64,000 nucleotides of DNA. Origin: Blasia pusilla (taxonomy: Eukaryota). The notes under the pieces were generated by a model. It had not been told where the DNA came from, made no database searches, and saw nothing but the letters and a program-made list of their open reading frames with translations. Made by a program: the position numbers and the translations under genes. The stretch lies in contig CM114271.1 in NCBI GenBank assembly GCA_050084515.1, positions 21,514,001 to 21,578,000 on the forward strand, written 5' to 3'. Positions 1-57,197 of this stretch are shown piece by piece (the first letter of the stretch is position 1; every line of letters starts with the position of its first letter).

Positions 1-2230
1 ATTAGAAATCTTTCAACCTAAACATATAGAGATGCAGTGAAACAGGAATCGTAGAAAAGGAGCTTCAGGTGAGAAGGTAGTCTTTCGAGAAGCAGAAGTC
101 GGCACATCAGGACCTCTGAGAGACTTTCAGAGATTGGATTGTGGCTGAAGGATTAGAAAGCATTCTGAAACAGTTCAAATAACTTTTGAGTTCATTGCAC
201 TAAAGAGAGGATACCAGAATTCTAAATAAAGAAAGCTCTCTTACCAGTAGCAGCAACCACACATTATATTCTAGAAATGCTATCTAAAACAAGTAGGTTG
301 GAGAAATTGCATGGCAAAGATGGACTCCATCTTACCATAGCCAAATAGTCATGAAATTTTATATCTTTTGAGCTTTAATGATTGGAAAAATTGTTGTTTT
401 GCGTCTTGAGGGATTATAAAAGTAATCAACAGGCGACCCCTCATTGTAATGTCCCTCCAAAAAAAGCACTAAAATCATCTTTACAACCCCAACTATGCAA
501 TCCTACTTGCCTTGAACCCAAATGTGGAGTATTTAACACTCATACCACCAATCCAAGTATCCTGAAAGTAGTCTTATAAACCTATAGATACCCTCTCATC
601 AAAATTTAAGTAGAAGGTTAGACCAACATCTAAGTCATTTCCATTGCAATCTCTCATCATATCAATGGAACTTTTTACCTTTTACTTCAGAGTGTAAGTG
701 TTTCAGATATCCATTATGGGGGCTAAAGCGAGCTAACAAATGGTTAACAAATGAGTTAACTTATATCTTTTGAAAAAGTAAAAACATTTTAGCCACAATT
801 CTCCACAATGACAATTGTGGAGAATAGAAGCAATTGTAATTCATAATAGTACATATAGTACTAACTTCTATACATTTATATTGGAAAATCTTACTCAAGT
901 TAGCAAGAATAAACAATAAGGGTGCCAAAACATACAATTCTATATCATTTGAAATGATCGCATCTAGCATACATTACCATCATCCAAGTAGGGGAAATAT
1001 CCTTGAAATATCTTAGAATTGACTCCAAAAAGACACAAAATAAATTAACCGTTTGCCAATTAACATGACAACCAACAAATTTTATGATATCTCTTTATGA
1101 CCCTCTAAGAGTCATTGAACTTCTCTTGCAACAATGCAAGAGCGTACTTCCTCTTGGAAGATCCCCTCAAGATATCCAACTGCGACATTCAAAATGGAGC
1201 CCATTTCTATTATCACATCTTAGTATCCGATAGGTAGAGATCTATCGTGGCGAACTAAAAAAGCCAGCGGACTGTTTTTGAGTGTAGCTTTGTCCCGACG
1301 TGTCGAATGAGGTTGAGGATAGGTCTGTTGTGTCAAGAACATCGTTTCTGACAACTTTCCTGTTGGGTTCTTTCACAACCGGATGACTTGTTCAGCAGGT
1401 CACCACCCATGGTAAATTGTGCGCGCAGGTTACCGAGGGGGTTGCTATTTTTAGGTCTCATACCTATATAAGGGAGGAAAATGGCTTTCCCAAGCCATCT
1501 TTCTCATGTTGGGCCGTTGGAGGTTCATTCTTGCTCGGATGTGTGAGTTAGGATTGGTTACTTGCGTCTGGATTCCTTGATAGCACAGGGTGGACGAGGT
1601 TCGATATGTCGATGTAGATTGAGGAGAGGAGTTTTAGGCCGGGTGTGTCATTTTTACTCTTATTTTTACTTTTACATGAGAAAGATACGAGGGGGCAGGG
1701 GGAATTCGTTGTTTGCAGGTAGGCAAGCAAGTTGCCTCGGTTGGGAGCTCTTGGAGGCGCCAATTGGCGTTTGCTTTGTCAATTTTTCGTTCGGAAGGCC
1801 GTGTGCGGAAGCGCTGTTCATGTTTCGTAGATTTCGTTGGTGCATATTGACGAGAACGAGTCTCCGAGTGTAGCACGGAGGATGGCGGCAGGAGTAGTGT
1901 CGTCATATAGCGGCAATGATGAGTGTAAAGGGGAAGGAGAGTTAGATCTTGCAGCTTTTGGGGGGGCTATTTAGTAAAAGAGCAACCAGGTTACAAGAAC
2001 CGGGTTAAGCCAAGCGTGAAGTTTCTGGCGGGGTTGGAGGAGAGTACCAGGTAGAAGACCCGGCGTATTCGGAGTCGCCACAGAGAAAAGGAACTGAATC
2101 GCGGTTGGAGGTCCAATCGCGTGAAGAGCCACAACTGCAAGTAGTCAAAAAGTTGGGAAGTTGAGAGTGAGAAGCGCGTGGCCAGGGGTTGAAGGAGCAG
2201 TACGAGGCGTGTAAGAGAATAATGATGCAC

Positions 2231-3745
2231 TTTGATATAAACGTGTGATGGAAAACCCATCGGAAGTACAAAAGAGGGGGACTCAAAGAGTCAAAACCTG
2301 AAGGCTACAACAAGACCAGAAAAGGAAGAAGGGGGCATTCCCCCCCCTAATGACAAAACTCACCAACAGCAGAGACAATATCAACAACAACAAGAGAGCT
2401 ATGACTACTACTAAGTGGGCCTCTAGCTCCGGCGTCTCCCACAGCCTGAGCCCGCCGCAAAAGCCCATTAGCCTGGGCGCGCTGTAACGCTATGGAGACT
2501 CGCTGCCTACAATAGAGAATCGCAATAGCTAAGGACAACCCATTTCTCGATTGGAGATGATGGGCGCAGTCCGTAAGGAACGAGTCAAACCTCTCCCCCA
2601 TAGCCCCATACATCTCTATGGCCAGGGGGATGAAGATGTGTCCCTCGTGAAGTCGAATGTAGATATGTGTCTTCTTCACCGCCGCCGCCGCCGCCGCCGC
2701 CGCTCCTTGTAGCATTCGCCCTTGGGCCACCACTTGGCCTCGCACTACCTCTTGCATAGGATCTCTAACTACCACGTCCGCCACCACCACCTCAGCCTCT
2801 CATGTCATGTAAAGATAAGCTCGAATAAGGGAATCCCGCATGGAGTAGTGCCTCTCTCTCTGCACATGGAAGCCACTCTCCCAAGCAATACTGAACATGA
2901 TATCCTGCACTGCATCGTGAGTGGCGATCCTCTCACCCCCAACTGGACAGCGTGCCAAATGCACACCAAGTGGATCCAGGCTCCTGCAACACTCACAGTG
3001 TGTCGAACCAACCAACGATGGTTGGGGGAGGCCCAAGCAGAACCGCATCGCTGTAGTATAGGTAAGTGGTGCGATACGGAAAGCCGAGAGAAGGGGGCGC
3101 GCCCCTACCCATGAGCCTGCCCTCTTTCCGGAGCAAGAGCGAATACGGGCCCTAACCTCAATGGGGATATTCCCATCAGACATAGTGCCTCTAAAAACTG
3201 CCTCAAAGTGGGCTTCCATCAAGGAAGATTGGAGCCCAAACTGACCGGAGGTAACTAAGGAGGAGAAAGTGGGGAGAACGGCTCTGGCCTTAACTCGAAG
3301 GGAATCTCTACAAGCTGTGAGTGAAGAATGAAGTGGGAAAGAGCCATCCTCAACCTGGGAGACGTACTGTAGAAGGAGCGGTCTATCTCTAACCAAAAAT
3401 CGGGAGCAAAGGAGGGGTGCCACTGTGGCCCAACTCCCTAAAAAAGCGGAGGGCGCCACTAACCCAGTCGAGAGAAGACCTACTCCACCAAAAGAAATCG
3501 GCCAAGAGGCCTGTCTACGAGCTAACTCCCCCATGGGGCACTCTAAGGAGCCGGGTCCTAGAAGATCCCCAAACACCTGCATGAGCTTCCTATCAAAGGA
3601 TCTATATAGGGAAGAAAGGTGACTAGATGTCCAGACCGTTCTAGTGAGGTAACCAGGTCTACGAGCAAAACAAGAAGAGAGAATGCAAAAGGCGACTTGA
3701 GGGTCACGAATCCTCGTAAGATCATCAACAGGGGCTACGCAAAGA
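2231..3745 (-). mobile_element. 5'-truncated non-LTR retrotransposon with restriction-like endonuclease (CRE/NeSL-type)
   Basis: RT C-terminal ARRQASWPISFGGVGL, CCHC knuckle CECCRSLDPLGVHLARC, RIATHDAV, and PD-(D/E)xK region VVADVVVRDP...KKTH...FIPLAIEMYG. Stop at 2347 with a short 3' UTR. Boundaries approximate. Confidence 0.8.
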
Positions 3746-5076
3746 TTAGCCGGACAAAGAAGAGAGTAAAGACACGCATGCCGAGAAGTGGCAGGAGTAG
3801 GAGAGAGGCGTTGTGATGACACAGGAGGACGCAATTAAGGCGACGGTGAGCTCCTTAGGGAGCCGTGACAAGGCACGTTGTAACTCGGGACAGTTGACGT
3901 AAGGACATGGCTCCCAAGGTGACGAGCATAGGGCAACGTGCCCAAGAAGCACGTAGGCGAGAGTAGAAAAGAGTCGAGAGTTTGGGGCGTAAATAGGTCC
4001 ATAGGAACACATGCCAAAATGGGAGACGAGAGCTAAGTTGGGAGTTGGCTGGGAGTCTAGGACCAAGTGAAAGGAACTATGGGAGACGGAGGCCGGGGTG
4101 GCTTGGTCAGACGGGTCCGAGATGTCGTGTGCATACACATCGTTACAAAATATACATCGTTGTCACCGAAGACACACACAAATACGCACGACCCCATGCT
4201 AACTCATGGTATCCAAATAACGAAACAAGAAGTACCAAAATATCTCCAATAAATCAAGATTCTATCTCTCTCAACACCATAGCTCTCAAATGTGTGCACT
4301 CTCACATGTCTCTTTCAATGTCAAACCAAACCCACTCTCCTAATGAGAGGCTTGGGTTACACACACAAGGCAAGCAAGACCATAGCTCCGCCGCCTCATG
4401 CCAAGAGGTTCAACAAAGAGAGAATGAGCTCTCAAGCTTTCTTTCCTTGAGGTATACCCCTCCCCTCTCCCAAGCTCTCTCCATGGTAACCTATGCTCCT
4501 AAGTTACCTCCTTGGCTCTTGACATGATGTAGGAGGTCAAGGGTCACTTACCAAAAATAAAAAGTCGACCATATACTCAAAATGGTACTTACCTAAAATA
4601 GCAAGTTCTTCAATATGGCTCCAAATGAGCCGAAATGAAGGGGAAACGTGCTCTCTCAGGTTTCTCCGGGCCTCAACAAGTCATTCTCGACCTTGTGAGT
4701 CTATCCTCCACTACTCGCGAAGGCGCTCTACTAAATCTCACCGATCTATCCTAAGAGACGTGACACTTGTCGTGCGCATACTCATCGCTACACAACATAC
4801 ATCGTTGTCACCAAACACAAATATGAACACGCACGATCCCATGCTAACTCATGGCATCCAAACAACGAGACAAGATATACCAAAATATCTCCAATCGCCC
4901 CCCTAGCTGGTGGTTAAGTCCCTCTAACTCTAGATAGTTATCTATCCCTACCTACCATGACATAAATCTCTCGGACGCTAAGAGCAAGAAGGCCAAGTGC
5001 TCATGTGGCCCCATCGTTAGTCGCCTTCTTGTCATCCATCTCACATACACAAGTCGGAATGTAGAACTACCTACTC

Positions 5077-6128
5077 TATGTACATCTGGGACACATCCAT
5101 CATCCTTGAGGAACCCTAGTGAAAGGTGGCGTCAAACATGCCATATGCCATCCTCTCGAATATCCATCATAGACTAGCATATTGGCTGCACCACGAGCAT
5201 AACCACACAACATACATCCTAAGCCTGCAAGAACTACTGCTAAGCTCGGATCAATTGTACCGTCAAAGTTTGGAAGATGACACGGCTCATAGTTACGCAC
5301 ATGGTCCTTCCAAACCATACCATCACGTCCCTCCAATAAGAGAACACCTGATGGCAAAACCTCACGCATTCTCAAGATGGTGCGCCTTGTAGTCACATCC
5401 AACGTCGTGGATGTCGCTGCTGCAAGTAGACATAGTCTCCCTAATGAAACCTCCGGATAGTAGGTCGATAACTCCCCCGCGAATAGGCGCATACCTCAAT
5501 GTATCCCGATGTTTCGAAATCGCCAAGTTCTTAAACGCCATGGGCATCACTCACCAGAACAACTCAGCCCTCTGTAAACATGCTCTCATCCATACATTAG
5601 GGTCATCAAGGTTCAACACCTCTCCAACATCTCTACGAATGGCCATAGGTAAATCTGGCTCACGGCCATAAAGCAGCAAGTACGGTGAGAAAGACGCTAA
5701 GGATACTTGCCCGTTGAATCTGTATCCCATCGCCAACCATGACAACGGGAGGTTCCAATCTCCTAGATTACCTCTCTTCATCGTCTGCACAACCCTCTCC
5801 GCTAGTCCATCCGCCTCTGGTTGATCTCGGAAAATGGTGCGGTGGTCGATCAATGCCTAATCATACAAGGCCTGAAACTCCCCGCAAAAGTCTATACCCT
5901 AGCCTGTCAACACCTTAGTTGGTGCGCCGTAATGACTCAGCACTCGATCTAGGAAGGCATACACTATTCCCTCACTCACTTTGTCAAGCAATGCAACCAA
6001 CTCTATCCACTTCGAGAAGTGCTCGACAATCACCAACACATAACGACTATGATGCTCCTTCAAAGGCAAAGGTCCTGCAAAATTTAAACTCCATCTATAA
6101 CCTAAACCCATGACCGGAAGTGGATAGC
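5077..6128 (-). pseudogene. DDE integrase core followed by a C-terminal PHD finger (degenerate)
   Basis: Integrase: PLPVMGLGYRWSLNFAGPLP...YVLVIVEHFSKWIELV...GAPTKVLTG, QPEADGLAERVVQTMKR, FSPYLLLYGREP. PHD: CMLCG...MLVYDGYSRGWHMACLTPPFTRVPQG*WMCPRC. Confidence 0.88.
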
Positions 6129-6419
6129 AGGTCGATAAGCTAGTGAGGAGCGCGGGAGACTCTTGGTGAGTTTGAGTGGTTGAGCGGGTGAGACAAGGTG
6201 ATGATCACAACGTTCTTCTAGGTTTGGGAAGAACATGGTAGTTTGAGTAGTAGTGGTGGTGTGACACGGAGTGGGGTGAGATATCGAGGGGTTTCTAGTG
6301 AGGAGTCACCTCAACTTCCATTCGTAGCTAGATTGTCATCACTACACAGCGGGCCTGGTGACGAGATTGCAGACGGAGGTAGCGTTACTTGGCAAGAGAT
6401 GGACGACATGAGCCATTGG

Positions 6420-7140
6420 GGCCTGCCTACCTTGTTGACCACAGTCAACGGTGGTCAATCATCGTGCCTCATTGCTTGTGAGCGACAAGCTGGATCTAGA
6501 ATGGAATCCACTAATAAATGGGATGGGCGCTCCACTCTCGCATACCACCTTCGGAACATTGCATGGGGCACCAAGTTGGTCCACCATATATGCATAGACG
6601 CGGGTGATGGGCTCTAGAACCTACACTCGCCGCATCCAAGAACATTGCTAGGCCGATCCAAGCACGCACCTGATGAGCACTCGTCACCATCCGTGATCTG
6701 GAGTCTCCTAAGATTGGCACATTCTCCAGAATGTAGGCTAGAGAACAAGACTGGTGCTCCTGCAATTGCCGTAAGACCCTCAACATCTCCCAACACAACC
6801 TGGACCGAGTGTCAGCCAACCTGCTGCCTCGTCCAACACTCGATTGGCGGTGACATGGCCAACCAGAAATAACCAAATCAATGGTCCCTACCCGCTCTAA
6901 GTCCTACGCCCCCAACAACGAAATATCCCTCGGTAGGGAACTCTGGTACTTCGAACATGGATTTGAGACAATAAGTCGGGAAAACATAGGCGTAACTGTG
7001 CCACATGTCGTAGTGAGACGCGCCTCGCAACATCATCACTCTCCACATACAGGTACTGTTGTACTCGCACTCCTGCCTACAAAACATCATCTAGCCCGGT
7101 GCTAATCCCTCCAAAGAGATCTAACACTCGAATATCCTTC
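6420..7140 (-). pseudogene. DNMT3-like C5 cytosine DNA methyltransferase domain within the retroelement pol (motifs I-VIII; degenerate, C-terminus deleted)
   Basis: Motif I IRVLDLFGGISTGL, motif II YLYVESD, motifs III-IV LPRDISLLGA*DLERVGTIDLVISGWPC, motif VI YILENV, motif VIII region FLDAASVGSRAHHPRL..WWTNL. Order and spacing parallel DNMT3A (IRVLSLFDGIATGL, GPFDLVIGGSPC, WLFENV, IDAKEVSAAHRARYFWGNL). Confidence 0.9.
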
Positions 7141-7493
7141 TTCAGGGTACACCACACAATAGGTGTGATATCCAAGGGTGTCATCGTAGCACTCCTTGAT
7201 ACCTCGAATTCCTCAGACCCATCACACTCTGGTGCAAACGCCTCGCTCCACGCGGTCTGCACGTGCTTATCTGCCAATCGTCGAAGCTCCTCAGTCGAGC
7301 CCCACAACGGCACCTCTCCTCCATGGAATGATGCGACTACCATAACACTCCTCTCCATAGAAATGCCAGGAATGGGAGTATCCTCTACATGGACATGTCC
7401 CTCAATCAAATCACTAGGCCAAGTGACGGGACTGCTAAATGCTGCTAAGGTCGCCATCTCTCCTGGCTGTTGCTTGATCATTGCACCTGTGAA

Positions 7494-8041
7494 TCAAACG
7501 GGTAATGAGCTAATGCGCCCATCACATGATTGCCATCCTAGTGTGTAATTGGCTGACTCCTCCGAGTAATCTAGGGAAAACTTCATCGGGTATAACACTG
7601 TTCCACCAACCAAGATGTCGTAGGACTCTGCATCAATCACTATTGCCTTGGCTCGCACCACGGATGTCCCGGGCGAATCCTCACCACGACCTCCTGTCGG
7701 GTGATATACTGTATGGTACCTGCTCCACCCAAGGATGTCTATATCTGAAAAGGACAACGCTCCACCTCGACTCTCGTCAAGCCCAATCCTATGAATGACG
7801 CTTTCCCCAACATCAGGGGTTGCGCTCCTGAATCCAACAAGACGCGCTGCGGACTAAAAGCTCTACCTCCGGGACTCACCAAGTGGAAGACCGCTCCTCG
7901 TTTATCCAGTAACACAACATCATGAGAAGCCATGGCACGCTCTATCGCGGGTCTAGCGGGCATCTCCGCCATCCTAGCAGCCGTAGCTTGCCATGAATCT
8001 GACGTGGACGGCCCGAGCATCCGCTCCAAGGGCAAGTCCAT
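7494..8041 (-). pseudogene. Retroviral-type aspartyl protease domain of the inner element (frameshifted)
   Basis: LLDSGA catalytic motif and the downstream YDILVG motif lie in adjacent ORFs 7739-8041 and 7494-7757. Confidence 0.85.
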
Positions 8042-10731
8042 CGCTTCCTCTGCAATCTCCTCTTAACGTGATGCAGGAACTCCAACTCCGCGCTCATATA
8101 GTGAAGCGGCCAGCCAAAAAGCCTCGGCGGGCGTACCCCCCAACGTCATAACATCGGAAGCAGAAAATAAAGGAGTGCGATACACAACGGTGGCCGCCCC
8201 CAACAGCGTGCTCGACACATGCCCCTCCTGAGCATCAACATTAGGAGTCCTCGTACTTGCTTCTCCCATCACCCTCTATGCCTGCACACCAACAACATCA
8301 CCAACTCTCCAAGAACTCTGATCAGGACCCATCGATGGGGTCCTCATTGCCTCGGACAACGTGAAAGATTGAGGAAGCCTAGTCTATTTTCGGGCTTCCC
8401 CTCGTTGTGGATCCAACTCTGCGGCTCCTCTATTGGGGGCATATCACCCACGCAGTACATGACTCGACATGAGTTGGTGGTTAGACTCCAGCAAGAGCAT
8501 GAGTCGGATAGTGTGATGGTTTAGGGTCGGGCGATTACGACACCGACGGAGTCGTATGATGCGTTGGTAGGGAGTACAATGTTGTATCCCCTTGGGTTCA
8601 TTCTGGATTTTTGGGAGGAGAAGGTTTCTTATCGGCCAGGGTGGCAATCAAGTGATGGACGGGTGAGCCATCTATTGGTGTTTGAAGGGAATAGTGGTGG
8701 TTCGACCACGTGAGGATACAGTGACCACGTTGGTAACATTCATAGGTGTTGTTCGCTGATCATGAGGGTTTGGAGAGAGGAGCACACATGTAGAGGACAT
8801 TCTCGTAGCAGATAGTCCCACGGAGAGACATGTCAGGGTGGGTGTCTCTTCCCATGGTGCAGAGCTTCTTTATTGTTGTTGGAGATGATCGTTGAGATGC
8901 ATGGAGTGCAGATGAGCTTGTGAGGCAGGTGTGGAGCCGTGTCTATGTTTGGAGTAGGGCACGAGAGTGTTAGATCTCTTTGAAGGGATCAACACGGCGG
9001 GTTGCTGCAGTGTGGCAATGTTTCAGGGACGACGACACCAATGGTGCTAGATGTATATAGGATAGTAGATCATGTGAAGTACATAGGTGTTGACTATCTG
9101 GAGTTAGGGGGACCCAATTGCCAGCTAGGGGGGCGATTGTGGGGTCTCGATGTATATGTGTGAGTTGGGAAGATCGGTGTTGTGTGGTGTGTAGATGTGA
9201 CCAGCAATGTGGGTTGTGTAAGGATGTGTATGCGCACGACAACTGTCACATCTTAATAGCCAATAGGTAGAGATCTATCGTGGCGACGGCATAGAGAGCC
9301 AGCCGATTGTTTCTGAGTGTAACTTCGTCCCGAGGTGTCGGATGAGGTTGAGGATAGGTTCGTTGTGTCAAGAACGTCGTTTCTGACGACTTTCTTGTTG
9401 GGGTCTTTCATAGTCACCCCCCCTGGTAACTTGTGTGTGCAGGTTACCAGGGGGTTGCTATTTTTAGGTCTCACACCTATATAAGGGAGGAAGATGGTTT
9501 TCCCGTTGGAGTATCATTCTTGCTCGTGTGTGTGAGTTAGGATTGATTACTAGCGTCTGGATTCCTTGATAGCACATGGTGGATGAGGCTCGATATGCTG
9601 ATGAAGATTGAGGAATGGATTTTTAGGCCGGGTGTGCCATTTTAGGGGGGCGGTTGTGGGGTATCGATGTATATGTGTGAGTTGTTTGGTTTATGGATGG
9701 ATCGACCCGTGTGTTGGGAAGATCGGTGTTGTGTGGTGTGTAGATGTGACCAGCGATGTGGGTTGTGTAGCGATGTGTATGCGCACGACAGCATCGATAT
9801 ATCCTTACAACTTGGTACTTTGGTTGTTGTCAAAGTGGCCAAAATTGGTCCTATGTGCAATATAGTGCATAGAAAGCACAAAAGCGTTAACCTTTTGCTT
9901 CAATTTGGATATTGGCACGTTGTGACTCCCTACTATAGTTGACGCTCTATTCAAGCCAAAAGCCTCCATTGTTGTACTCTCTAGTCGCAAGTCTTTGATC
10001 AGATCCAACTTATTATCGATAGTAGCAGCATTTGACCATTTATCTGGACATTGCATTGCATCAATGCGTAGAAATGAACTCTCAACTTCCTCCTCTTCTG
10101 ACTACGTAAAAAATACAACCGGATGCCATGTTATAGAAATATCACTTGACTCATTGATCGTGATATCAATTTTCAAAAAAAGGGAATCTCTACATTTTGA
10201 TATTGGTCTTTATGACAAGAACCATGCTAATGTAGTAGCATATATCAATGCAACTCTTCTCATATTCATACAACTCTCTAGTGATTGGTGCATTCCAAAA
10301 AAAAAATATCTTACTCAAAATACTCAAAATCAAGAATTTAGCAAAAGCCAAGACTTCTTTTATTGTATGCACGCATACTTAAATAAAGTCAACATAGCAA
10401 CATCACGAGTTCGATTAGTACTAGAGATGGCCTTGGTCATGGATCTATTCCCATGAGAGCTTCATATGTTCCTTAGATTTTCCATGATATGTAAGGGCTG
10501 AAGCCTTTATGGCACAATTTCTTGTAAAAAACTTTGCACAAAATCTTACCACTTTCTACATGAAATTCTATCTAATTCAATAAAGAATACCACAAATCCT
10601 TCCAAGCTTCAATTCTTATTGGCTATGCCTTCCGAATGTGCATTTTTCTATCCACTTTCTTCTCATATCATATGATAAACATGATCTACTTGTATGCTCT
10701 AAACTATCTTTCTACAATCCTTATTCAACAT

Positions 10732-10832
10732 CTCATTCATAATTCTCCATCTCTTGGCCATCTAAAGGTGGTAGATCTTCCCTCATTCATAATTCTCCAT
10801 CTCTTGGCCATCTAAAGGTGGTAGATCTTCCC
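10732..10832. repeat. Perfect 50-bp tandem duplication
   Basis: ctcattcataattctccatctcttggccatctaaaggtggtagatcttcc occurs twice in tandem. Confidence 0.9.
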
Positions 10833-12372: not shown

Positions 12373-15300
12373 CTACTCCGCCATCTCTTTCTTCTTCTTC
12401 TTCTCCTTCTCCTTCTTCTCCTCTTCCTCCAGAAGGATATTTTTCAATGCTTCATAGCACATAAACGACAGCCCGGCTGCCGGTACAAGCTTAAGACAGC
12501 TGGGCCCAAGACCCCTGTACAAACCAGCCAGTCCCTCCTCTCGAAACACAGAAACCAAACAATCTAATGTATTCCTGTACAGTGGTCTCCCTTTAAGAGC
12601 GCCAACCTGCATCCGCTTACGAGCAACTTCTAGGGGAAATGTGGCAGAGCTAGCAATAGCTCCAGCTAGTGAACCGATCAAAAGAGTTTGAAAATTGCCG
12701 ATATGGTCTGTCTCGAAGCACCTTTTGTAGAGAGAGCGCAAATAATCATAGGCAAAATAATTCGTACCAGCGTATGGGACTATACCGACCACGCTCGGCC
12801 CAAGCCCCCGATATAGCTCCGCAAAGCCTTCCTCGCGGACTATCCGCCATAACGCATGGGAAAAACTGCGATACTCTTCTGGCTGTTTCTCCAATTCGAA
12901 ACAAAGAAACGCATGCATCAGGACCACAGGGATGTTACTTGCTGTGACAGATTGATTTTGGTTTCGAATCGGAAAAAAAAATTTGACGGGGACTCTCAAC
13001 AGTGCTATCTGAACATCTTCTTACGAACTCTGAACACAATATATGCTCCATTACGCTTTCCAAGTTTCCTGCCCTCGTCCATAAACTCCACACCCTTTGC
13101 ATTCGAAATTTACGAATCATCACCGTAGATAATACACAAGACCCTCGGATATCAAAAGAAAAATTTGATTCAATACTGTACAAAAACTTTCACAGATCTC
13201 ATTAACGTGACCTTCCGAAAAGTTAGAACAAAGTGCACAACCCTTCAAAGACCAAGTTACCAAACAAGTGAGCATGACAATGCCTCCTAGAAACCTATTT
13301 AACCTTCCAAATATCCATTTCGCACCGTTTCTGCGACTAACTACGGGATGAACGAGAAGAGTTTGCTAGCTCTCATTCTCTATTCGGCAGAGAGCCTATT
13401 GGCCTTTAGGACCCTTCCATATGTGTGGCTTGGCGTCCCCTCTATCTAACCACGGGCTGAACTAGAGAAGATTGATGGATCTCAGTGTCCAGTCCGCAGA
13501 AGCCTATGGGCAACAAGTCTATGTATGGGCACTGGCGTCTCAACCATCTAACCACCAACCGAAGAAGCAATGCTTTGTTGGTTTCATTTTCTAGGGCCAT
13601 GGGCAATGCACACTTTTTCCTGTGGTTGTGACAACCCCCAATGTCAGAACCAGTTATTGAACTCACGACTCTATTGGGAGGATGTTAGAAAAGTTCCACT
13701 GGACTCAGCAGCCATCCACCTCTGGAGTGTTATTGTCCGAATGGGAAACCACACTCAAATCATCTATTATAATCTGTTGGGTAACTTCAGGTGGGAATTG
13801 AAGGGTCCAGTGATCAGGGCTGAGTAGGTCCGTCTGGGTTAGAGTAACAGGAGGTGATTCTCTTGGCGTGTCTAGTCTGGTATTGGTCTATACGACCAAA
13901 TAGATCCCAATTGGGATAATTTTGGGTACCGGTCGCTGGCACCTTGCCTCTACAACCCTGGGCAGGTCGAGAATGGGTGGCAGTCATACTCCACGCTTCT
14001 GACACCATTGTTGTGCTAACAATACAATAAACTTGGGTCAAAAGTCTTCCTTTTGGGACGGTGTTTCCTACGAGCTATCTCCGTCATCCTATAGGTGATC
14101 TCAGAGAATTTCTTCTCATATTTCGCAGTACACACCATGGTGACTGTGGAAACGAAAACTAACTGGAAGTTAGCATTCCCTCCAGAGAAGAGAGTGCACT
14201 AACCACGGATATGTACGTCGCTATCATCCTGCCATTGAACTAAAAGAAAGCGTATGAAGAGACGCAACAAAAAGTGTAAAGACCATTATTGCATGTGTCT
14301 TAATATAAGTGAGAGGACCATTATGCCATGTGTCCAGGCATTTAAAAGATACGTGACAAAGTCGTGGAGAACGTCTTGGTAAGGGATAATTGAAATAACC
14401 TGAATGGTAAGGCGTGTTTTGAGAAGCTCCAGAGGATACATCAACACTGTGGAACTGATTCCTGCTGCTGAGCCAGCTATTGATGAAGCGGGAATTTTGA
14501 GACCAGCTTCTCCTTCCTTTGGTGTCAAAGCGACTTTCAACTTATCAAATACGAATAGCTGATACAAGGTAAAACAGATAAGGTTAAACCAAGATTTAGT
14601 ACGTTGTTCTTCACAATGTCGGACCCAAGAACTTGACGGCACTAAAACATTGTCCTCACTGAGAGATGAGAAAAAACTGCCAGAAAGTCGTCAATGAACA
14701 CTCCTATCCGAAGCCAATAGACGGGTTTCCTCAAAATTAACAGACAATTATTCAGTTTGAGAGCTTTGGAATTCCAATGCTCTCATTTGAGACTCTGCGT
14801 GAAGACAACATATTCATACTCAAAGACATCGTGTATTTAAATCTTGGCCAATTAAACACTTTCAGGTTTAAAATTTCACCTCGATAGCTTTGCTTGGAGC
14901 CACCCTGATGACATTGATGGTGTTACCGCGAAAGAGCCCTGTCCAACCTTCATTCTCCAAGATCCACTCCATAACGCCTTTGATGGATTTACCATGTCTC
15001 CCAACCATCATATGCGTTCTTATAGTTTCCAATGGAGCTACGGCCGTGCGAGAAAAAGCTCCTGCGATAGCTCCACTAAGCAGTCTTCGCCCATTGCTTC
15101 CTATCTTAATCTGAAATCTAAACCCTTTCCGTCCAGCAGCGTCCGGATGATTCTCACCCGATGATTCATATTCGTCACTAGAACTACAGCGTTCAAAATT
15201 GGTTTGTTTCTCCCGGACAGATTCGTCGAGGGCCAAATGAGTGCATTCATCTACCGAATTGGGAAGGAACTCAGGATGCGGTTTATCCTTCGAAGAGGTC

Positions 15301-15770
15301 ATCGAGCTGAAGTTCGACAGGTCAGGTGTAGACGGATCATATTCAGGTGTCGACCCAGGGAAAAGATGATCCATTGAGTCGTACAGCAACTCGGCACAAG
15401 TTAGTTCGCCGAGTTCTCCTATTTTCCGAATCTTCTGGCTACCACTAAAACTCTCCACGCCGAAAACTGGAGAGTCCTGGCGCGGACCTTCGGACAGCAC
15501 AGCTCCTCTTTTCCTCGACCTCTGCCTTTCAGAAAACGTAACATTCGGCTTGACTTTGGTGCTGAAAACGGGGGGTAAATCTTTCCTTGGAGACGCAGCT
15601 TTTCTGCTGGAAACCTTGAAGAGACTGTGAGAAAAACGGTCGCCATCGGATGTTCGTGACGCATTCAAGCCATTCCAGTTCGCTCGCAGTGGATTGGAAT
15701 TCTTCAACCATGTCACAAACTCCAAAACACTATTAAACGGCGGCTTCAAGTCTAGTGCAGGCCCCGCCAT
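12373..15770 (-). CDS. BT1: Adenine nucleotide transporter BT1 (Brittle1)-like mitochondrial carrier family protein; exons 14880-15770, 14400-14558, 12373-12882
   Basis: Three carrier repeats (APLETIRTH, YPLELLKTR, FPLEVARKR), GLFRGNTINVIRVAPSKAIE, canonical GT-AG junctions in frame, and a long N-terminal extension. Confidence 0.92.
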
Positions 15771-18700
15771 GGAACCCTGCCCTTCGAATCTTCTTCTTCT
15801 CACTCCCTCCCAGTTCTTCCTCTGTCCTTTTCCAAATTCGATTCTCACCGCAACTCAAGCGCTTCGCTCTCCATGTTTCTTCACAATTCGCCCTTCATTC
15901 TGCTGGATCTCCCTACCTTCCACATCCGACGCCGCTTCGCAAAGCCTCCGTCTCCGTATCGCGTTGGCCACTCACTTCTCCGCTGGTGGGCAATATAATT
16001 AAATCACACACACACTCTTATAAAAAGAAAAAATACAGACGACTGACAAATGTTGAAACCCCACCGTTTACCCAACCAACAATCATCTCTACCCTACACT
16101 TCTCACTACTCCTCGGATGTCCCGTGGCAGCGTTGATTCGACGAGTGCGCCTCAAAAGCTTCGAGACGGGCCACGGCCACACGACAGCCAGCCGGACCGG
16201 CTTCCCACGACGCTCCCGCTGTGCCAAGTGTGGACCCAGGTGCCGCCCACTTGGCGAGCTCCCGAGGCTTACACCTTTTCCTGCAGACGGACGCTCCGTC
16301 CCCTTGTACCGAATGCTGATGGGAACCGCGATATGCGGTATTTGTTGAATTTTGAAGCCAGGCTATGGTGGTCGGGGAAGGGGTTGTGGTTTCCCCTTTT
16401 ATCATGTATGTTCGGCAATGCCATAAGGAGTATGTTACAAGTCTAAAGGAGATGGTGAACAAGATTTGATTTATATCGTAAAAGGATATAGATTCATCTC
16501 ACTAACCACAGAAATGTATGGGAGCGGAGATGATGACCAAGGTTTAATTCTATGGTCGTATAAGGATAAAGATTCATCTCCCTAACCATAGAAATGTATG
16601 GGACTACGAGGAACGTTTTTGACGTGTTGGAACACGCCCTGGTCGCGATCAATTTTTTTCAATTGAAAAATGACTTGTCCTTTGACCACTTATAGTGTAA
16701 ACAACTTGTCTCCATCGCTTCGCAACAAACCAATGGGCTTATGAGGGAGGAGCCACTACTAGTCACCATTAAGAAAGCCTCCCAGAGTGTGTGGATAAAC
16801 GAATTGAAATTGAGAAGATGGTCCTTGGGTACTACTGGTTTTACCGGGATTTGTAGTTAATGAATGTGTGCATCTCTTACGTGCAGGTGGTTTATGGCCG
16901 CAGTTTCGGAGGAGGAAAGGATAGGGCCTTGTAGTCAATGACTGCGTGTATCTCTTACGTGCAGGTGGTTCGTTGCCTCGGTTTTACAGGAGAAAAGGAT
17001 AGGGCTTTCATCGATGTTACAGTTGAAGTCCCATCCCTGTTTTGCAGACGTCGTGACTGCTGTGCTGCTCTCTCGTCTTGCAATTCTCTGTGGTTTGAAT
17101 TGTACGGAGTCCGCGAGTAATCTGTCGAGTGCATGAATGCACTGACTACGGCAGACAATGTGCGGCAGTATCACGACCACAAGTATCCTTCGCATAGCCC
17201 CCCCATGGCAAGCTTGTCTGTGCAATGAATAGGTTTGTCATCTACATCATGTACTGTAATGGAACAATGTACTGTCAGGAAAGTAGGAAGCCCATGCGCA
17301 TGCTCTTTATTTCTACAGCTTCAATGCGGCTTCTTACAGGTGGGTGAAATTTGAGGAAACCAATGTATCATTGGGCAGTCGGACGCATCTCGTATGTTGT
17401 CGATCCGGGGATGTCGTTCAGTCGAGTGGAAGTCCGAAAAGTGTTGGAGATCCTAGCCTGAGTAGTATTGGGAGGGGAACTGGACGATGCCTATTGCATC
17501 AATGCCGGAAGGAGGCAGACGAGAAATACTGCAGTGGATAGCGTTCAAGGCGGAGATGAACATCTAGCTAGGATAGTTCCTCCTCTGGCTAACGGCTTAT
17601 GGTCCCAAAGGCTAAGAAAAGCAGTACCTAGCCACTTAACAAACACAAACATCAAAGTACGCTTTGTAGTAAGCAAGCCCAACTCAATCAACTCCACTAC
17701 AACCCGTACATATTGGACAAATTGAACCCTAATTTAGCTGCCTCGCACATTTCTCTTACCTTCTTTTCTAACCCTATCTATCTCTGCTCAAATTCAGCTC
17801 TCATTCATAAATTAAAGTATCTGAAGGAAAGGACTCCACCATCAAGACGTAGAGTGTGGCTAAACCAAATCTTTAGCACTTTTTTCCTTACAACACTCAA
17901 CAGTTCACAAGAAATTCCCGTCATACAAACGTCTCATATCGCCGATGTAAGCACAAACTGGAGTTGCGTACATACCTAAGAACCGATGGGAAGTAGACTC
18001 GCTTGGGACGGCGCTGGTTGAGAATGACGTTTTTTTTTACGCTGGTTGGTTCGCTCTGTTGTAGGTAAATATGGTTGGGCAGGGCTGAAGTCAGCCGAAG
18101 ATGGGGAGAACATTTTCCCCAATAGTTTCATGTTCCAAATCAGCCGTAGAAGACGAATCATATACGTGTTTTCAGTCGGAATACATCGTGGAAAGTGCCT
18201 CGAATGGATCAGCATGTTGAACCCCGAGCATTCAATCGCATTTTCAAGACTCACTTGAACTGCTATTTGCTTCACTCCTCCCTAAAATCATTATACGGAC
18301 TCTGCCACGATGTTCACAACCTCACATGCAGTACACATACAACCAAGTAGCGCTCCAAGGTTTCTCCAGGCTGCGAGCTAATACGAAGAGAGTGGTAGCG
18401 ATTCAGGTCTAGACAGCAAAGTAGGTGAATTCAACGGAGAAAGACACGTAGGGCATGCCACAAGGGTGAGAAGAGGAGATGAGCAGCATTCGACATCCTG
18501 TCCTTGATACGCAAGGCCGCATATTCCAGATTACAATCACGTCGAAGATGGAAGTAGTAGAGGTTCTTGAAAATCTACCAAGACTGGTTGGATATAGAAA
18601 CATTTACATTCTCAAGAGAAGATGCCTTCTTGTTACGAAGAAATGTGTATATGATGCCATGGAATGGTTGACAGATGTGAGATGACAAAATGTTGGTGCG

Positions 18701-25471: not shown

Positions 25472-26289
25472 TATGACCTTGAGTTGCATGAATATCTCTC
25501 AAAGGACAAGAAGCCATAAGCCATCAGTTTCAGTTCTCAAGGGTATTTTTGTGCTAGCTAAAGTGTAAAGGTCTTTGAAAAATATTTCAATATAGTATTT
25601 TGATAGTTCCTACCTTTCTTTTGAATTGGACATCTTTGATTGTATTATGATGATCATTTGGAAGTAGCCTTTGGGCATTCCAATGTTTGTATGACAAAGA
25701 CAATCTATATAAATTTCATTTTCTTAACTTTCTTATGGTCACATCTAGTTAAGATTTCATTCAAATGTATATACGAAAGAAATCATGTTATGATGTATGG
25801 TTAATTTTCTTTGGTTGATTTCTATCATGGTTAGGTGGAATCCCATGGAATTTATTTGTATTGCAAAAAAATAGCCTATTAAGAAAATAAAATTGAATTC
25901 TTTTCTAATTGAGATGTAATGAAGATAAGATAGACATACCAAAGAAATAAAAAACACAATCAACTTAGAAATTTGCGGAATCACAAACACATGGATTCCA
26001 ATCATGGCATTAAAGGAACATCAAAATCTCTTGATATTTGGGTTATACAAACGATGCAATATCATACAAAATTTAAGACCATTGTCTATTTCTACGTTTT
26101 AAATTAATAGATTGAAAATATTTTTAAAATATTCCTAAATGTTACCATAAATATTAAAACCTTGAATTAGTTTATACATGTACAAGAAATGTGTAAGTCC
26201 AATCCAAGAAGAAAAATATGAGATTCCGATGCATGAATCTGAATTGTGGGCTTTTAAAGGAACACAAGAAATTTATATGTACCTCTTAT

Positions 26290-27330
26290 ACTATGGCAAT
26301 TGCAAATCCAATGAAGATAATGTACGATATATGCTCCAGATCCTTTTGAAACAATAATTCCAAAATCCTCCTTACCTAGAAACGTGGTTGAAGTCCAAAA
26401 ATGAATTTTATATCTTTACATTTCCCACATTCCCTAATAATGGAAAAAAGTATCAAAAAAGCAAAAAAATCCCCTTCAATTTCATATTCTCTCATCTATA
26501 TAATTAAAAGAAGACGGGTTTTAAAAACACTACTCAGGTGTCGACACATGTCCTCTAAGGGCTCTTATGATGTCGAAACATGTCACTTTGAGAGAGGGAG
26601 TTGAATTGAGGAGAGATAATAAAGAAAATTAAGTATGAAGGATTGAAATCCAGATGCCCGTGCATAGCACGAGCACTTAGAGCATTTGTTATTTAGTAAA
26701 AAAACTAAGTAACAAACTGGTATCAAAACATAATCTCCATACATAATAAACTAATGAAAGAGTAGATGAAGACTAAGTATGTATGATTGTTCTATAGAAT
26801 GGAAAATCACGAAGATTTACATATTGATCATGAATACACCCTTTTATGAGAAGATTCATTGGCTATTTTTGTGTACATCATGATCACATGTGTATGCATG
26901 CAATGAGGAAAAGAAGTGAAAATATTGAAGGGTTAGTTATCTTGTGAAGCTATGAAGGATTGAAATTCAACCCTTGATATTTTTTTTACCGTTGAAAAAT
27001 TAGGAAAATAAAAGGAAATTTCACAATTCTCCTCAATGGGCACGACCTCTACTACAAGGTATAATGGGAAGAAATTTTTTACGCTTTATATGATGGATAG
27101 TTCATCATCCAGCATACAAGCTCTATTCTCAAATGAATTTCACTAAATACAACTTCACTAGAATGATGATGTAATCAATACATCAATAATAATAATATGA
27201 TGTTTTTTCTTTATGACATGTATTGACCTTTTCAATGTGTGCATATGGAGAGATTCATACAACAAATAATAATGAACTGAAAGCCGTCAAGATTTTTTTA
27301 AATCCAAATTTCTCAATGAATATGGAAACA
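26290..27330 (+). repeat. Dispersed AT-rich repeat, homologous to ~44810-45690; contains a Helitron-like hairpin at ~26657
   Basis: Shared blocks in the same order, e.g. aagtccaaaaatgaat, tgcatgcaatgaggaaaagaa, aaaaggaaatttcaca. Confidence 0.65.
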
Positions 27331-27994: not shown

Positions 27995-28537
27995 GTGCGC
28001 ATAGCAACATTCACATTGCTACACAACATACATCGTTGTCATCAAACATACACACAAACACACATGATCTCATGATAATTCTTGGTATTCAAACATCGAG
28101 ACAATAAGTACCAAAATATCTCCAATCATCCCCCTAGCTAGTGGTTAGGTCCCTAAAACTCCAAATAGTCACATTTCCCTACCTACCATGATATACATCT
28201 TTAGGACGCTAAGAGCAAAAAAGTTCGGTGCTTATGTGGCCCCATAGTTAGTCGCCTTCTTGTCATCCATGTCATAGTTTCAAGTCGGAATTTATAACTA
28301 CCTACTCTATGTACATATGGGACACATCCATCATCCGCGAGAAATCCTAATGAGAAGTGGCGTCAGACATACCATATCCGACCCTCTCGAACATCCATCA
28401 TAGACTATTATAGTGGCTTCACCATGGGCAAAACCACACAACATACAACGTAAACTTGTAGGACCTATTGCTAAGCTCGAATCAACTGTACCGTCGATGT
28501 TAGGAAGGTAACTTGGTGCATAGTTACGCACATGACC
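27995..28537 (-). mobile_element. Second fragment of family 2 (integrase tail, PHD, 3' UTR, PPT, B1)
   Basis: Colinear with 4771-5305. Translation HVRNYAPSYLPNIDGTVDSSLA...CMLCGFAHGEATIIVYDGCSRG. Confidence 0.88.
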
Positions 28538-29189: not shown

Positions 29190-32172
29190 TGATTTTTGGG
29201 GCAATTTTAGGGAAAAGAGATTTTTCCACGAAGAAAGAAAGAGATAGCTTTCAAGCCATTTTTTCCATTCCGAGCCTTTATCTCACTTGTCTTGCTAAGG
29301 TTTGGTTGGAGCTTGGGAGTTAGATTTCGGATTCCCTCATACCAGAAGGTGGATGTGGCTTGATATTAGGATATAGATTCTGTAGAAAATTGCTAAAGAA
29401 GCATAACTGGTGGGAAACGGCTCTCACACTCACACACCACCGTGGAGAACAAAATTTTGCAATGAGAGAATCAATGGAGGCTGGTCCCCTTCTCAATTAT
29501 GTAGGGTATATACAAGCAACCCTAACCCTAATCTTAACCATAGTTTCAAGTAAGACTAACTGTGATTAACTAACCCTAGTTAAGATAATCACACTTAACT
29601 CACTAACCAAAATTAAGCTTCCCTACTTCGTGTGAGTAGCAAATGTAGCAGTTCATGTGTCTCATGAGCTTGTCTCACTAGAAGGAAACATATCCATTGC
29701 TACTAAAATATGAAACTATATTTAGTGCATATATACAATATACAATTATTGCGATTGTTTAGTGCCTAGTTGCAAAGGACGAGTCATGTAGATCACTAGT
29801 CGCAATGAGTCCACGATGGCATAATGACGTGGTTGTTGACTTGGCTAGTTTTTCTCTAGTGTTTTTGGACGTGGAAAGTGTCCTGTCATACTACATGTGA
29901 CGTGGTAATATTGTAAGGATGACATGGCTCATAGAAGGAAAGATCCACGTCATCTTATGAATGACTACATCTAGTCATTATAATCCCCTAAAAAAGTATT
30001 GCCACAAAGAAAATGCACTAAATTTAGTATAGATATGTTCATTTAAGCATGTTATGTTCTAACATGTGGCATGTTTTTCGTTATAGTTGTTATTTGACTA
30101 CACGTAGTGCATGATATTAACTAGAAGTAGTATCATGTAGAGTACTAGTTTTGGTACTTTTAGAGTGCTATATCGGTAGTCCGCATTCATGTACTATATA
30201 TAGTTTTATTCTTCTCATAGTGCTCATTTGTGTACTAAAAGGTTTTTTTATAATTTTTGGTTGATTATTAAGACTCATATTGAAGCTATTGTTTTCACCT
30301 CTCCAGGGAGCTAGATCCCATAATTGAATGATATATTTCTTAGGTACACATTTTAAAACATTAGAAACACATGTTAAGTAAGGGTACTTATAACTCATTT
30401 ATTCTAGAACCAATGATAGAGATAATGCAAGCATTGTTCAAACTCCATATGTAACACAATAGAAGCAGACATGGAATGAGAGTTCATAATCTCATTTACG
30501 TTGAAGTTGTCATACTCCTACAAACTATTCATACCATCAATACAAAAAGATTGGGTAACAAAAGAAACTCCACTTCTCTGGAGTTTGTTCAAGGTACTGA
30601 TTTTAAATGCATCAATAGAGTGGCAGCTCCGTGCAACACATCATCCACTCAGAATACTGAATACATTAACTTCAAACTCCATATTTAGCACAATGGAAAG
30701 GAGAGAAACAAAGGAAGCATCCAGATTAAAAAAACACAAGTCAATATGATAAGAAAATGCAAGAAAATAGGATTCTGATCACCAACTCCAACAAAATAGG
30801 AGTTTTAGATTTTAGTATTAAAAAAAAAATTTCTTGCAACCTATTCCAATGGGAAAAAAAAATCCATTCATAATAGTCACAATTGGTTGTGCTTGTATAA
30901 GATATGGTCACCTATTCCAATGGAATCTCTTTCTTCAATAACCTCTTAGGCCATAAGACTTGAGACCCAACAAATTGGTTCAAGAACAATTGTGGGGGGT
31001 CATCATCACGGTTTGGAAATGGCAGTTCAACACCGCCATTCAAAATTACCTTGATATCAACCCTCATAAATCCAAATGGGATTGCTTCCCATGGATCATA
31101 TCTCGACCTGCAAGACCTGATACATATCCTGCTCCCACAGATTGGCGTGTGTTTTTGTTTTGCTTCATCAAGACATAATCACCTATCACAAGTTGATACA
31201 AACACAGCCGAAGACCATGAGTATAACGTGTTCACTTGGAATGATAAATCCAAGAATATACGTTCTACACATGCATGAAACAAAAGAGAATGCATCACTA
31301 ACACAACCACAAGAGTTACCTTCAAAATACTCCAACCAATGTTAGGAATGTTGGAAGAAAAGATAGGATGTGCTTGGCTGGTCTACAATGTATACATGAA
31401 CATGGTCAAACACTTTAGTTGTTCCAATTGAAGTTTGAATGCAATATAAGAGGATTCGGTGAAAAGAAGAGGGAAGAAGATAGAAGGGAAAAAAGATTGA
31501 TGGACCAAGTCTGAAACTTACAGCCAATTTCTCTTTCTTCACCACTCGAGACTCCTTCTTCTTCTTTGGAAACCCTTACTTTGGTTGAATGTGATGTTTA
31601 CCATCTTGCTTGTTTTGTTCTTCTCTATTTCACCTGAAATCTACACCCACTAAGCTTTGTACAAAATTTCCCTCTCCCAAACTGAAATTGTGTCTTCTCT
31701 TGCCTCTCTTCTCTCCTCAAACACCAAAAATTTCAAGTGATGTTCTCCTATTGTTCTGATACCATGTGGAAAACTGCTAAAAAAACATAACTGGTGGGAA
31801 ACAGCTCTCACACTCACACACCACCATGGAGAACGAAATTTTGCAATGAGAGAATGAGTGGAGGCTGATCCCCTTCTCAATTATATAGGGTATGTACAAG
31901 CAACCCTAACCCTAATCTTATCCATGGTCTCAAGTTAGACTAATTGTGATTAACTAACCCTAGTTAAGATAATCGCGCCTAACTAACTAACCAAGATTAA
32001 ACTTCCCTACTTTGTGTGAGTACCAAATGTAGTAGTTTAGGTATCTCATGAACTTATCTGTAACTCAATCTTCAATAGATCTGAGAGTGGATTTGGTCAT
32101 ATGAGCTATTTTTTCCTCGATTTTGTAATGTTTAGTGTATAGATGTGATGAGCAATATATATGTGCACGACA
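29190..32172 (+). mobile_element. Diverged A-B terminal unit related to family 1, interrupted by the 29381-32077 LTR element
   Basis: 29230-29380 aligns with the A region of 35333-35915 (gagatagctttcaagccatt; attccctcata...ggtggatgtgg). The alignment resumes after 32077 and ends gtgcacgaca at 32172. 5' start not located. Confidence 0.6.
29381..32077 (-). mobile_element. Non-autonomous canonical LTR retrotransposon (LTRs 31765-32077 and 29381-~29675) with CACTA-derived interior
   Basis: Two ~300-bp direct repeats. PBS tggtatcagaac (tRNA-iMet type) on the minus strand at 31753-31764. Flanks gattc/gatct fit a decayed 5-bp TSD. The interior has cactag...ctagtg ends (29676-29861) and a minus-strand TnpA-like relic VELPFPNRDDDPPQLFLNQFVGSQVLWPKRL (~30930-31030). 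Confidence 0.7.
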
Positions 32173-57057: not shown

Positions 57058-57162
57058 ATGGGGAGCAGGGGCGCAGCGAGCGCCTTCGTGGAGAAGGTGG
57101 TGCTGTGGGTGTCGCAGGAGAAAGAGGAAGTTGGAGAAGCGGCGGGAGAGAGGGGTGAGTGA
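57058..57162 (+). promoter_or_regulatory. Candidate upstream ORF (34 aa) in the SLT1/FYD-like leader
   Basis: ATG in ggcATGG context. Encodes MGSRGAASAFVEKVVLWVSQEKEEVGEAAGERGE* and ends 35 nt before the main ATG. Confidence 0.55.
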
Positions 57163-57197
57163 TCGATCGAGCGGTTACATGCTGGGAGACTGCGGCC

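Follow-up and report, generated by a model that had tools for sequence, protein, structure and literature searches.

Split direct repeats in Ty3/gypsy-lineage retroelements of Blasia pusilla and a possible integration route through an internal palindrome

How can a retroelement that encodes a DDE integrase come to carry split direct repeats in the order A1...B1-A2-B2? PAT, Ngaro and TOC1, which share this order, use a tyrosine recombinase. The question is raised by a 64,000-nt stretch of the Blasia pusilla genome (assembly GCA_050084515.1, contig CM114271.1, positions 21,514,001 to 21,578,000; hereafter the window), in which a first-pass annotation described an outer and an inner family of integrase-type retroelements. 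Both were described as ending with a polypurine tract (PPT), B1, A2 and B2, and the outer one as beginning with A only. The split repeats of both families were reproduced with a repeat finder and BLAST within the window. We examined the layout of related loci, the signals for reverse transcription and the repeat junctions. The odd step of these elements is most likely integration, not reverse transcription.

For the survey of layouts, metagenome contigs were scanned with a 17-protein alignment; 475 of the 514 candidate stretches were confirmed, and 80 loci were kept and analyzed by self-BLAST and by BLAST with A and B. Loci sharing flanks or about 100% identical to each other were merged, and the counts of distinct loci given below were obtained in this way. 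All of the 14 distinct 5′ ends open with an A of the TGTCATG type after unrelated DNA, and neither B nor A-B was found in front of A in any of them. The arrangement that the first-pass annotation had named as fatal to its proposal, a full A+B followed by a primer-binding site (PBS) at the 5′ end, was looked for and was thus found in none of the 14. The 3′ ends of 35 distinct loci were classed as follows (nn denotes a 2-nt spacer), three further loci being too short for classing.

10 distinct loci: PPT-B1-nn-A2-B2
19 distinct loci: PPT-B, then unrelated DNA
2 distinct loci: PPT-B1-nn-A2, halting at the exact last base of A
4 distinct loci: deletion variants

From the uniformity of the 5′ ends and the 10 B1-nn-A2-B2 ends, it follows that A1...PPT-B1-A2-B2 is a regular integrated form and a trait of the lineage, not a chance truncation. 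The integrated termini are TGTCA... and ...CGACA. Perfect 4-bp target site duplications (TSDs) lie outside the A-start and the B-end in six of the nine complete elements: L006, L037 and L055 have the B-A-B form, and L020, L029 and L056 have the PPT-B form. Paired identical long terminal repeats (LTRs) were not found at the element tips in the survey, the left end being A only and the right end B-nn-A-B or B only.

Two of the variant loci, L048 (3321–3602) and L079 (10185–10601), have lost B1 and the first 65–176 nt of A2. They are independent of each other, and in them the PPT or the pol end leads into an incomplete A with B behind it, so that the deletion is recurrent. Inverted pieces, a B in L053 (7608–7769) and an A in L074 (3208–3500), were both found near other copies; elements of the same family thus nest or cluster also in the metagenome-derived genomes.

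In the window, the outer family is represented by the following features.

1211–1654, plus strand: outer A1, the 5′ terminal repeat; it starts with TATCACA, a TG>TA decay of TGTCACA
1465–1472, plus strand: TATA box TATATAAG within A1
1497–1509, plus strand: putative first RNA bases ATCTTTCTCATGT, 32 nt past the TATA box and complementary to 1674–1686
1674–1686, plus strand: putative self-priming site (PBS) ACATGAGAAAGAT, directly after the end of A1 and of the unique 5′ region (U5)
8426–8668, plus strand: outer-type protease remnant (tblastn with an open reading frame of L037, E 2.5e-22)
8950–8995, plus strand: outer-type methylase motif I remnant (in-window repeat match and its reading)
9126–9136, plus strand: outer PPT TAGGGGGGCGA, adjoining B1
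9137–9241, plus strand: outer B1 (repeat finder, BLAST)
9242–9243, plus strand: outer 2-nt spacer AC, inside the near-palindrome ACA-AC-TGT
9244–9642, plus strand: outer A2 (repeat finder, BLAST)
9643–9790, plus strand: outer B2, of which the first 11 nt (9643–9653) are a copy of the PPT; it ends with ...GCACGACA
35333–35915, plus strand: solo A|B unit of the outer family, with the TSD ACTA at 35329–35332 and 35916–35919

Within the window, BLAST gave 79% identity over 443 columns for A1 (1211–1654) and A2 (9244–9642), and 95% in two blocks for the B1 segment (9126–9241) and B2 (9643–9790), the latter having a 24-nt insert. The G-rich tract TAGGGGGGCG at 9126–9135 recurs as the copy TAGGGGGGCGG at the A2/B2 border (9643–9653), a point left unstressed by the first-pass annotation. 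The homology between A1 and the solo unit ends at 1667, as had been described, and the solo unit suggests that the true end of U5 lies at about 1673. The 4-bp TSD reported for the solo unit was also confirmed, ACTA being present on both sides, and a neighboring unit of the host tandem repeat reads GGAATTTACTAGCA, which is the uninterrupted empty site beside the insertion. The host DNA around the solo unit (35254–35965) consists of units of about 68 bp repeated in tandem (GGAATTTACTAGCA...TCGAC...).

The view that 1211–9790 is one outer element did not hold: its interior is a mosaic, and no TSD flanks it (CTAT precedes it and GCAT follows it). The part at 1903–2203 is near single-copy (genomic read depth of about 7.5), and that at 2224–3708 is a different repeat, which is read on the minus strand and whose RNA comes from the other strand. 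The outer-type coding sequence is confined to the protease (8426–8668) and methylase motif I (8950–8995) remnants, and about 2 kb are absent between the latter and the pre-PPT region. The gag frames of L037, L055 and L056 gave no tblastn match in 1655–4122. Minus-strand open frames are present at 2803–3834 (344 aa) and 2350–2799 (150 aa), without a Pfam match; over 2224–3834 the DNA read depth is about 1,300–2,900 and the RNA depth is 37–243 (first mate on the plus strand), and reads end at 2224. This region probably represents part of a different, unnamed transposon family, not the open reading frame of the outer element.

The inner family provides the following features.

4123–4250, minus strand: inner B2, the 3′ terminus, ending with ...CACGACA
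4251–4765, minus strand: inner A2, containing TATAC and, 31 nt on, CTCATTCT, a motif common to the related family F3
4766–4767, minus strand: inner 2-nt spacer AG, separating B1 from A2
4768–4895, minus strand: inner B1
4896–4905, minus strand: inner PPT TAGGGGGGCG, adjoining B1
5079–6204, minus strand: inner integrase core and C-terminal PHD-finger region, interrupted by stop codons
6413–7191, minus strand: inner C5 cytosine DNA methylase remnant
7500–8437, minus strand: inner aspartic protease (LLDSGAQ) and upstream polyprotein
28008–28534, minus strand: third copy (inner family), with the internal 3′ end, the PPT and B, then unrelated DNA

The 3′ layout described for the inner copy on the minus strand, namely PPT, B1, spacer, A2 and B2, was thus confirmed; its B1 and B2 are 86% identical. 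The inner copy spans 4123–8437 only, being 5′-truncated at about 8437 (loose read ends occur at 8430), and no inner-family A1 was found within the window. When it is compared with L037, the methylase–integrase interval and everything upstream of the protease region are missing, and the reverse transcriptase (RT) and RNase H (RH) have been deleted between about 6413 and 6126. In the third copy (28008–28534), no A2-B2 is found behind the PPT-B. Likeness between the two families is limited to the end of B, the start of A and the sequence preceding the PPT. The copies in the window are decayed: the outer one is a mosaic wreck, and the inner one is 5′-truncated.

The proteins place both families. 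For the domain scan, the inner frame was translated with its stops as X. The C5 DNA methylase (PF00145) scored 31.4 bits, against a cut-off of 22, and the PHD finger matched weakly, at 21.3 bits, under the cut-off of 24; both had been overlooked in the first-pass annotation. The integrase match (rve) in the window reached 21.5–22.6 bits, under the Pfam cut-off of 32.6, and the integrase call was made because homologues with 63–64% identity to it score well above that cut-off. The integrase–PHD reading of the inner copy retrieved 27 longer proteins, the best of which are those 63–64% identical to it, and the best homologues carry RT, RH, an integrase zinc finger, an integrase core and a PHD finger. 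In the full-length relatives, the order is zinc knuckle (GAG), protease (PR), C5 DNA methylase, RT, RH, integrase (IN) and PHD. For example, P0030 has PR at 663, RT at 1443, RH at 1660 and IN at 1925–2090; P0043 is like P0030 with an additional zf-CCHC at 517, and P0012 also has the Ty3/gypsy pol order. PF00145 was also found in L037, L055, P0012, P0030 and P0043, and the methylase lies upstream of RT in L037 and L055.

Among solved chains, the Ty3-G Gag-Pol polyprotein 7q5b is the nearest (E 3.5e-101), followed by the Ty3 RT 4ol8 (E 1.3e-79). The named homologues come from Calypogeia, Sphagnum, Marchantia and Closterium, that is, from bryophytes and a zygnematophyte; no Klebsormidium nitens protein was named among the matches listed (27 and 30), about a quarter of which carry names. 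The tyrosine recombinase PF00589 had no match in any Pfam scan, in which rve and Integrase_H2C2 were found; a chromodomain also had no match in the Pfam scans, the PHD finger PF00628 being present at the integrase C-terminus instead. Both families in the window belong to a Ty3/gypsy lineage with a GAG-PR-C5 DNA methylase-RT-RH-IN-PHD polyprotein, and its DDE integrase, aspartic protease, TG...CA ends and 4-bp TSDs are as had been proposed.

The signals for reverse transcription were then located relative to A and B. In 48 of 58 loci, a run of at least five Gs lies just past the pol end, and the PPT directly precedes B1 in all loci in which B1 was mapped. No tRNA-type PBS is found after A1; the bases that follow A are instead complementary to a site 30–32 nt past the TATA box in A. 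The exact complements amount to 17 nt in L037, 12 nt in L056 and 13 nt in the window, each length being reached by none of 300 shuffles. As the exact-match test was too strict for decayed copies, a local-alignment test was added, in which the alignment at 31/32 nt past the TATA box was reached by 0–3 of 300 shuffles in the F2 loci L014, L020, L039, L045 and L079. Furthermore, a 15-nt complement joins the leader of L012 to the A2 of L070. Altogether, the complement was found in 8 of the 15 5′ ends tested and in the L012/L070 pair. Among four families, the sequences at both priming sites are unrelated, and yet the complementarity is retained. The motifs, from which the RNA 5′ end is predicted, point to a self-priming arrangement of the Tf1 type. 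The PPT and the priming site border the B-start and the A-end, not the integrated termini. Since the PPT lies at the B start and the priming site at the A end, the repeat built by reverse transcription would be B-spacer-A, running from the unique 3′ region (U3) at the B start to U5 at the A end.

A clear regularity is seen at the B1|A2 junction, which reads ...ACA-nn-TGT..., the spacer always being 2 nt long. The spacer is purine-pyrimidine in all 14 distinct loci (GC in 5, AC in 3, GT in 3 and AT in 3). In the genomic reads, GT, GC and AC were counted 60, 46 and 22 times, respectively, and in the window the spacers are AC (outer) and AG (inner). Transitions dominate the differences between the copies and the reads of set X21 (window 1000–10000): C>T, G>A, A>G and T>C were counted 363, 398, 264 and 278 times, respectively, and transversions 42–92 times per class. 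From the purine-pyrimidine spacers and the transition-dominated decay, we infer that the ancestral spacer was GC, with which the junction forms the perfect palindrome GACAGCTGTC. Transition-rich differences at 1000–10000 are also the expected pattern for methylated repeats. The spacer agrees with the first 2 nt of the TSD in only 2 of about 9 elements, and this agreement was judged to be due to chance.

At the A2|B2 junction, the last base of A is fused with the first base of B. This fusion is exact in all five distinct F2 loci and in L070. In F1, a single base is added at the junction in L037 and L028, and four PPT bases are found there in L018; L006 has a 17-nt filler in addition to four PPT bases. 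In the outer copy of the window, the junction holds 11 PPT bases. Two independent loci, L053 and L060, end at the exact last base of A beside different unrelated host DNA, as is expected for a free cDNA tip. In the alignments of the copies, B1 and B2 cannot be told apart at any column (0 of 201 in F2, 0 in F1), so that both B copies were apparently renewed from one template. The identity of B1 and B2 is highest within the same element in three of four F2 copies; this is not the case in L055 and several F1 copies, and this identity gives no clear dating.

Reads from the host species were examined in the same manner. Three connections are borne out by the read joints, those of the B end with the A start over a 2-nt spacer, of the A end with the B start and of the A end with the leader, and no joint of B-end to leader was found among the 15 best-supported of 595 joints in the genomic reads. 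Loose read ends with diverse sequence heap up at 4765 (A start) and 4768 (B end). At 80% likeness, the depth of Hi-C DNA reads is about 3,200 for the outer A and about 16,600 for the inner A, against about 7.5 for a near single-copy bin. The copy number would accordingly lie in the hundreds to thousands, an estimate based on that single bin and on Hi-C data. In three RNA runs, the inner family has a depth of 35–300, with the first mate nearly all on the plus strand; assuming the usual stranded libraries, this RNA is sense. The B2 bin has 7–10% of the RNA depth of the B1/A2 bins, compared with 24% for DNA, a weak hint, confounded by multi-mapping, that transcripts end short of B2. Five RNA reads of one run, and none of two other runs, cross the A|B joint, too few to judge entry into B2.

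We propose that these elements are reverse-transcribed in the canonical way and are then inserted by an integrase acting at an internal palindrome. The RNA would begin in A1, end in A2 and prime itself, reverse transcription being canonical and Tf1-like. The repeat thus built would be B-GC-A, with U3 made of B and the first part of A, and with R (the terminal repeat of the RNA) and U5 made of the rest of A. The linear cDNA would then read [B-GC-A]...[B-GC-A]. Its tips would be ignored by the integrase; they are unlikely to be its substrate because they are neither conserved nor of the TG/CA type. The integrase would instead cut within the left repeat, at the conserved palindrome ACA|GC|TGT, and the right tip (A end) would be joined to the left tip (B start) by end joining, circle formation or a template switch, giving A2|B2. 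With the palindrome cut and the tips joined, the inserted copy would be a circular permutation of the cDNA. If both palindromes were cut, or if B1 and B2 recombined later, the A...PPT-B form would result, which should be dead because it lacks a downstream R. Recombination between A1 and A2, or the insertion of a small A|B fragment, would give the solo units. Cleavage of palindromic LTR-LTR junctions by integrase is reported for HIV-1 and foamy virus (PMC1905944, PMC1180852). We give this model as a whole slightly better than an even chance.

Several results weigh against this model. The start of the RNA and the poly(A) site are read from sequence motifs only. In the self-priming test, L062 was borderline (10 of 300 shuffles), the match was not significant in L006, L008, L011, L029 and L030, and the A1 of L055 has no TATA box. 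The youngest copy, L070, whose B1 and B2 are 98% identical, has the spacer GT, not GC. Among the nine complete elements, the TSD is absent in L014, matches at three of four positions in L039 and is ambiguous in L008; it is also absent in L079 (a deletion variant) and in the outer copy of the window. Moreover, if a plain circle with two LTRs could be cut at one palindrome as well as at the other, A|B-nn-A...PPT-B copies should be equally numerous, and none was found among the 14 distinct 5′ ends; an asymmetry is required, and we suggest, as one example, that the left repeat may be the first to become double-stranded. The PPT-B form, which should be dead, is more frequent than the B-A-B form (19 against 10 distinct loci), and this would be wasteful if it were a primary product. 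Finally, the PPT remnants at A2|B2 could stem from gene conversion of B2 by B1.

The explanation that survives next best is the idea of the first-pass annotation, a DIRS/PAT-like replication with a swapped enzyme. The RNA would run from inside A1 to inside B2, the B1-A2 junction would template the missing tips and close a circle, and the DDE integrase would insert this circle. The repeat layout is indeed that given as "A-coding region-B-A-B" for DIRS-type elements in a published figure legend (PMC5890265, Fig. 1e), and the repeats of the Gypsy-Dnmt3 element of Klebsormidium are described in DIRS terms in the same paper. The homogenization of B1 and B2 is also partly predicted. However, the PPT at B and the self-priming site at A are ordinary signals of LTR-type cDNA, which are useless in the DIRS scheme, and the two loci ending at the exact end of A and the variation of A2|B2 among close F1 relatives also speak against it. 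In addition, the Pfam scans gave no tyrosine recombinase, the copies have 4-bp TSDs, and a circle with two identical B-nn-A junctions likewise predicts the A|B-nn-A... form that was not seen. This explanation is unlikely. Of the non-canonical replication scheme advanced in the first-pass annotation, the permuted layout is real; the signals, on the other hand, do not look DIRS/PAT-like and are placed as in an ordinary element with an LTR of the composition B-GC-A.

Another explanation is a head-to-tail dimer, in which the mobile unit is A...PPT-B and A2-B2 is a second, internally deleted unit always lying 2 nt behind it, in the manner of tandem dimers of insertion sequences. Several results fit: A...PPT-B is the commonest form with its 19 distinct 3′ ends and has TSDs in L020, L029 and L056, A|B units insert alone, and the spacer is constant at 2 nt. 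Nevertheless, an A...B unit has no downstream R repeat, so that the first strand transfer would be impossible for its RNA. Furthermore, the end points of the A2-B2 deletion would lie at the exact PBS/PPT borders in six of six distinct F2/F3 loci, unlike those of random deletions. We regard the dimer as improbable.

The last explanations are much weaker. Ordinary LTR elements with the LTR A+B, of which truncated or rearranged copies were observed, would account for the TG...CA ends and the TSD of the solo unit, which resembles a solo LTR; they are very improbable, since B lies between A and the leader in 0 of 14 distinct 5′ ends, the B-end-to-leader joint is missing among the best-supported read joints mentioned above, the PPT adjoins B and not A, and three B-A-B copies have intact TSDs. 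An LTR made of A alone, with B1 internal, was rejected, as it leaves B2 and the position of the PPT unexplained. The least probable of all, scarcely credible, is a Ginger-like cut-and-paste DNA transposon with a gypsy-type integrase: the inner copy has a protease, a methylase, an integrase and a PHD finger and no RT, and the termini and TSD length of Ginger1 fit the TGT.. ends and 4-bp TSD seen here, but the intact relatives have RT and RH between methylase and integrase, which the window copy lost, the PPT and the self-priming site are conserved, and the nearest solved relative is the Ty3 Gag-Pol polyprotein.

Returning to integration at the internal palindrome, we can compare the elements with known systems. 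As in Tf1/Sushi, there is no tRNA-type PBS, and the predicted 5′ bases of the RNA are complementary to a site beside U5; here, in contrast, a PHD finger replaces the chromodomain, a methylase is present, and the RT-built repeat and the integrated copy end at different positions. Self-priming is mentioned for Tcn1 and Tf1/Sushi, having been inferred for Tcn1, in the REXdb survey (PMC6317226). In retroviruses, the CA-nn-TG palindrome of abutted att ends is likewise reported as an internal substrate of integrase (PMC1905944, PMC1180852). The retroviral junction arises by ligation of the cDNA tips and is a side path. Here, the palindrome is templated in every repeat and is apparently the regular att site, while the ligated tips are kept as A2|B2. 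Although the repeat order is shared with PAT, Ngaro and TOC1, the present elements have a DDE integrase, a protease, 4-bp TSDs, a PPT and a self-priming site; to our knowledge, PAT, Ngaro and TOC1 have neither TSDs nor TG/CA ends.

The possibility that such elements are undescribed, left open in the first-pass annotation, was not borne out. According to a figure legend, KnitGypsy-Dnmt3 of K. nitens has a DIRS-like repeat layout together with Gypsy domains (de Mendoza 2018, PMC5890265, Fig. 4c). As far as that description goes, it is like the present elements in having a C5 DNA methylase inside the Gypsy Pol and A-coding-B-A-B repeats; the hosts differ, the named relatives here being from bryophytes and a zygnematophyte, and the likeness is one of description. 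The main text, as far as it covers this element, gives no TSD, PPT, PBS or mechanism, and the supplements may hold more (PMC5890265). Our literature searches found no other description of the A...B-A-B layout in an integrase element and no proposed mechanism. The elements in the window thus join a known, barely described kind, the Gypsy-Dnmt3 type, for which the mechanism is inferred here.

The remainder of the window contains several other features. A perfect 50-bp tandem duplication (two copies, 100% identity) lies at 10732–10831. Direct repeats of 295 bp, 89% identical and 2.4 kb apart (29381–29675 and 31765–32059), could bound a small element, and dispersed repeats of 65–75% identity pair 26278–27191 with 44796–45551 and 33388–34083 with 43682–42915, one pair being inverted. 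The minus-strand open frames at 12373–13020 and 14868–15854 share a repeated ...LYRGLGPS... motif, and by eye we take them to resemble mitochondrial carrier-type exons. On the plus strand, a 476-aa open frame at 57159–58589, with a GC content of about 58% against 30–40% around it, is likely to be a host gene.

For annotation, these results mean that canonical LTR finders would miss the elements, as had been expected; the REXdb survey, for example, kept only TSD-flanked LTR pairs with TG/CA ends and at least 95% identity (PMC6317226). Annotation tools may call A1/A2 as LTRs without a TSD, or B1-A2-B2 as a miniature LTR element, and judging from the read depth, the families concerned are abundant in the host genome. 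With a C5 DNA methylase carried in the Pol of this lineage across bryophyte-type hosts, the single published case, from Klebsormidium, is widened. The methylase, being co-inherited, might act on the CHG sites (CAG/CTG) of the palindrome.

It is conceivable, and we advance it tentatively, that a streptophyte clade of Ty3/gypsy elements, found in bryophytes and charophyte algae, shifted its integrase sites from the cDNA tips to a palindrome within the LTR. If so, each productive insertion would need the cDNA tips to be joined and a repeat to be cut open, and split direct repeats would not be diagnostic of tyrosine-recombinase elements. If the internal palindrome is used, a DDE integrase can support a permuted provirus, and the elements would offer a natural system for the study of junction cleavage. 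LTR retroelements would then have a third integration logic, one that mimics the split repeats of the DIRS type by convergence.

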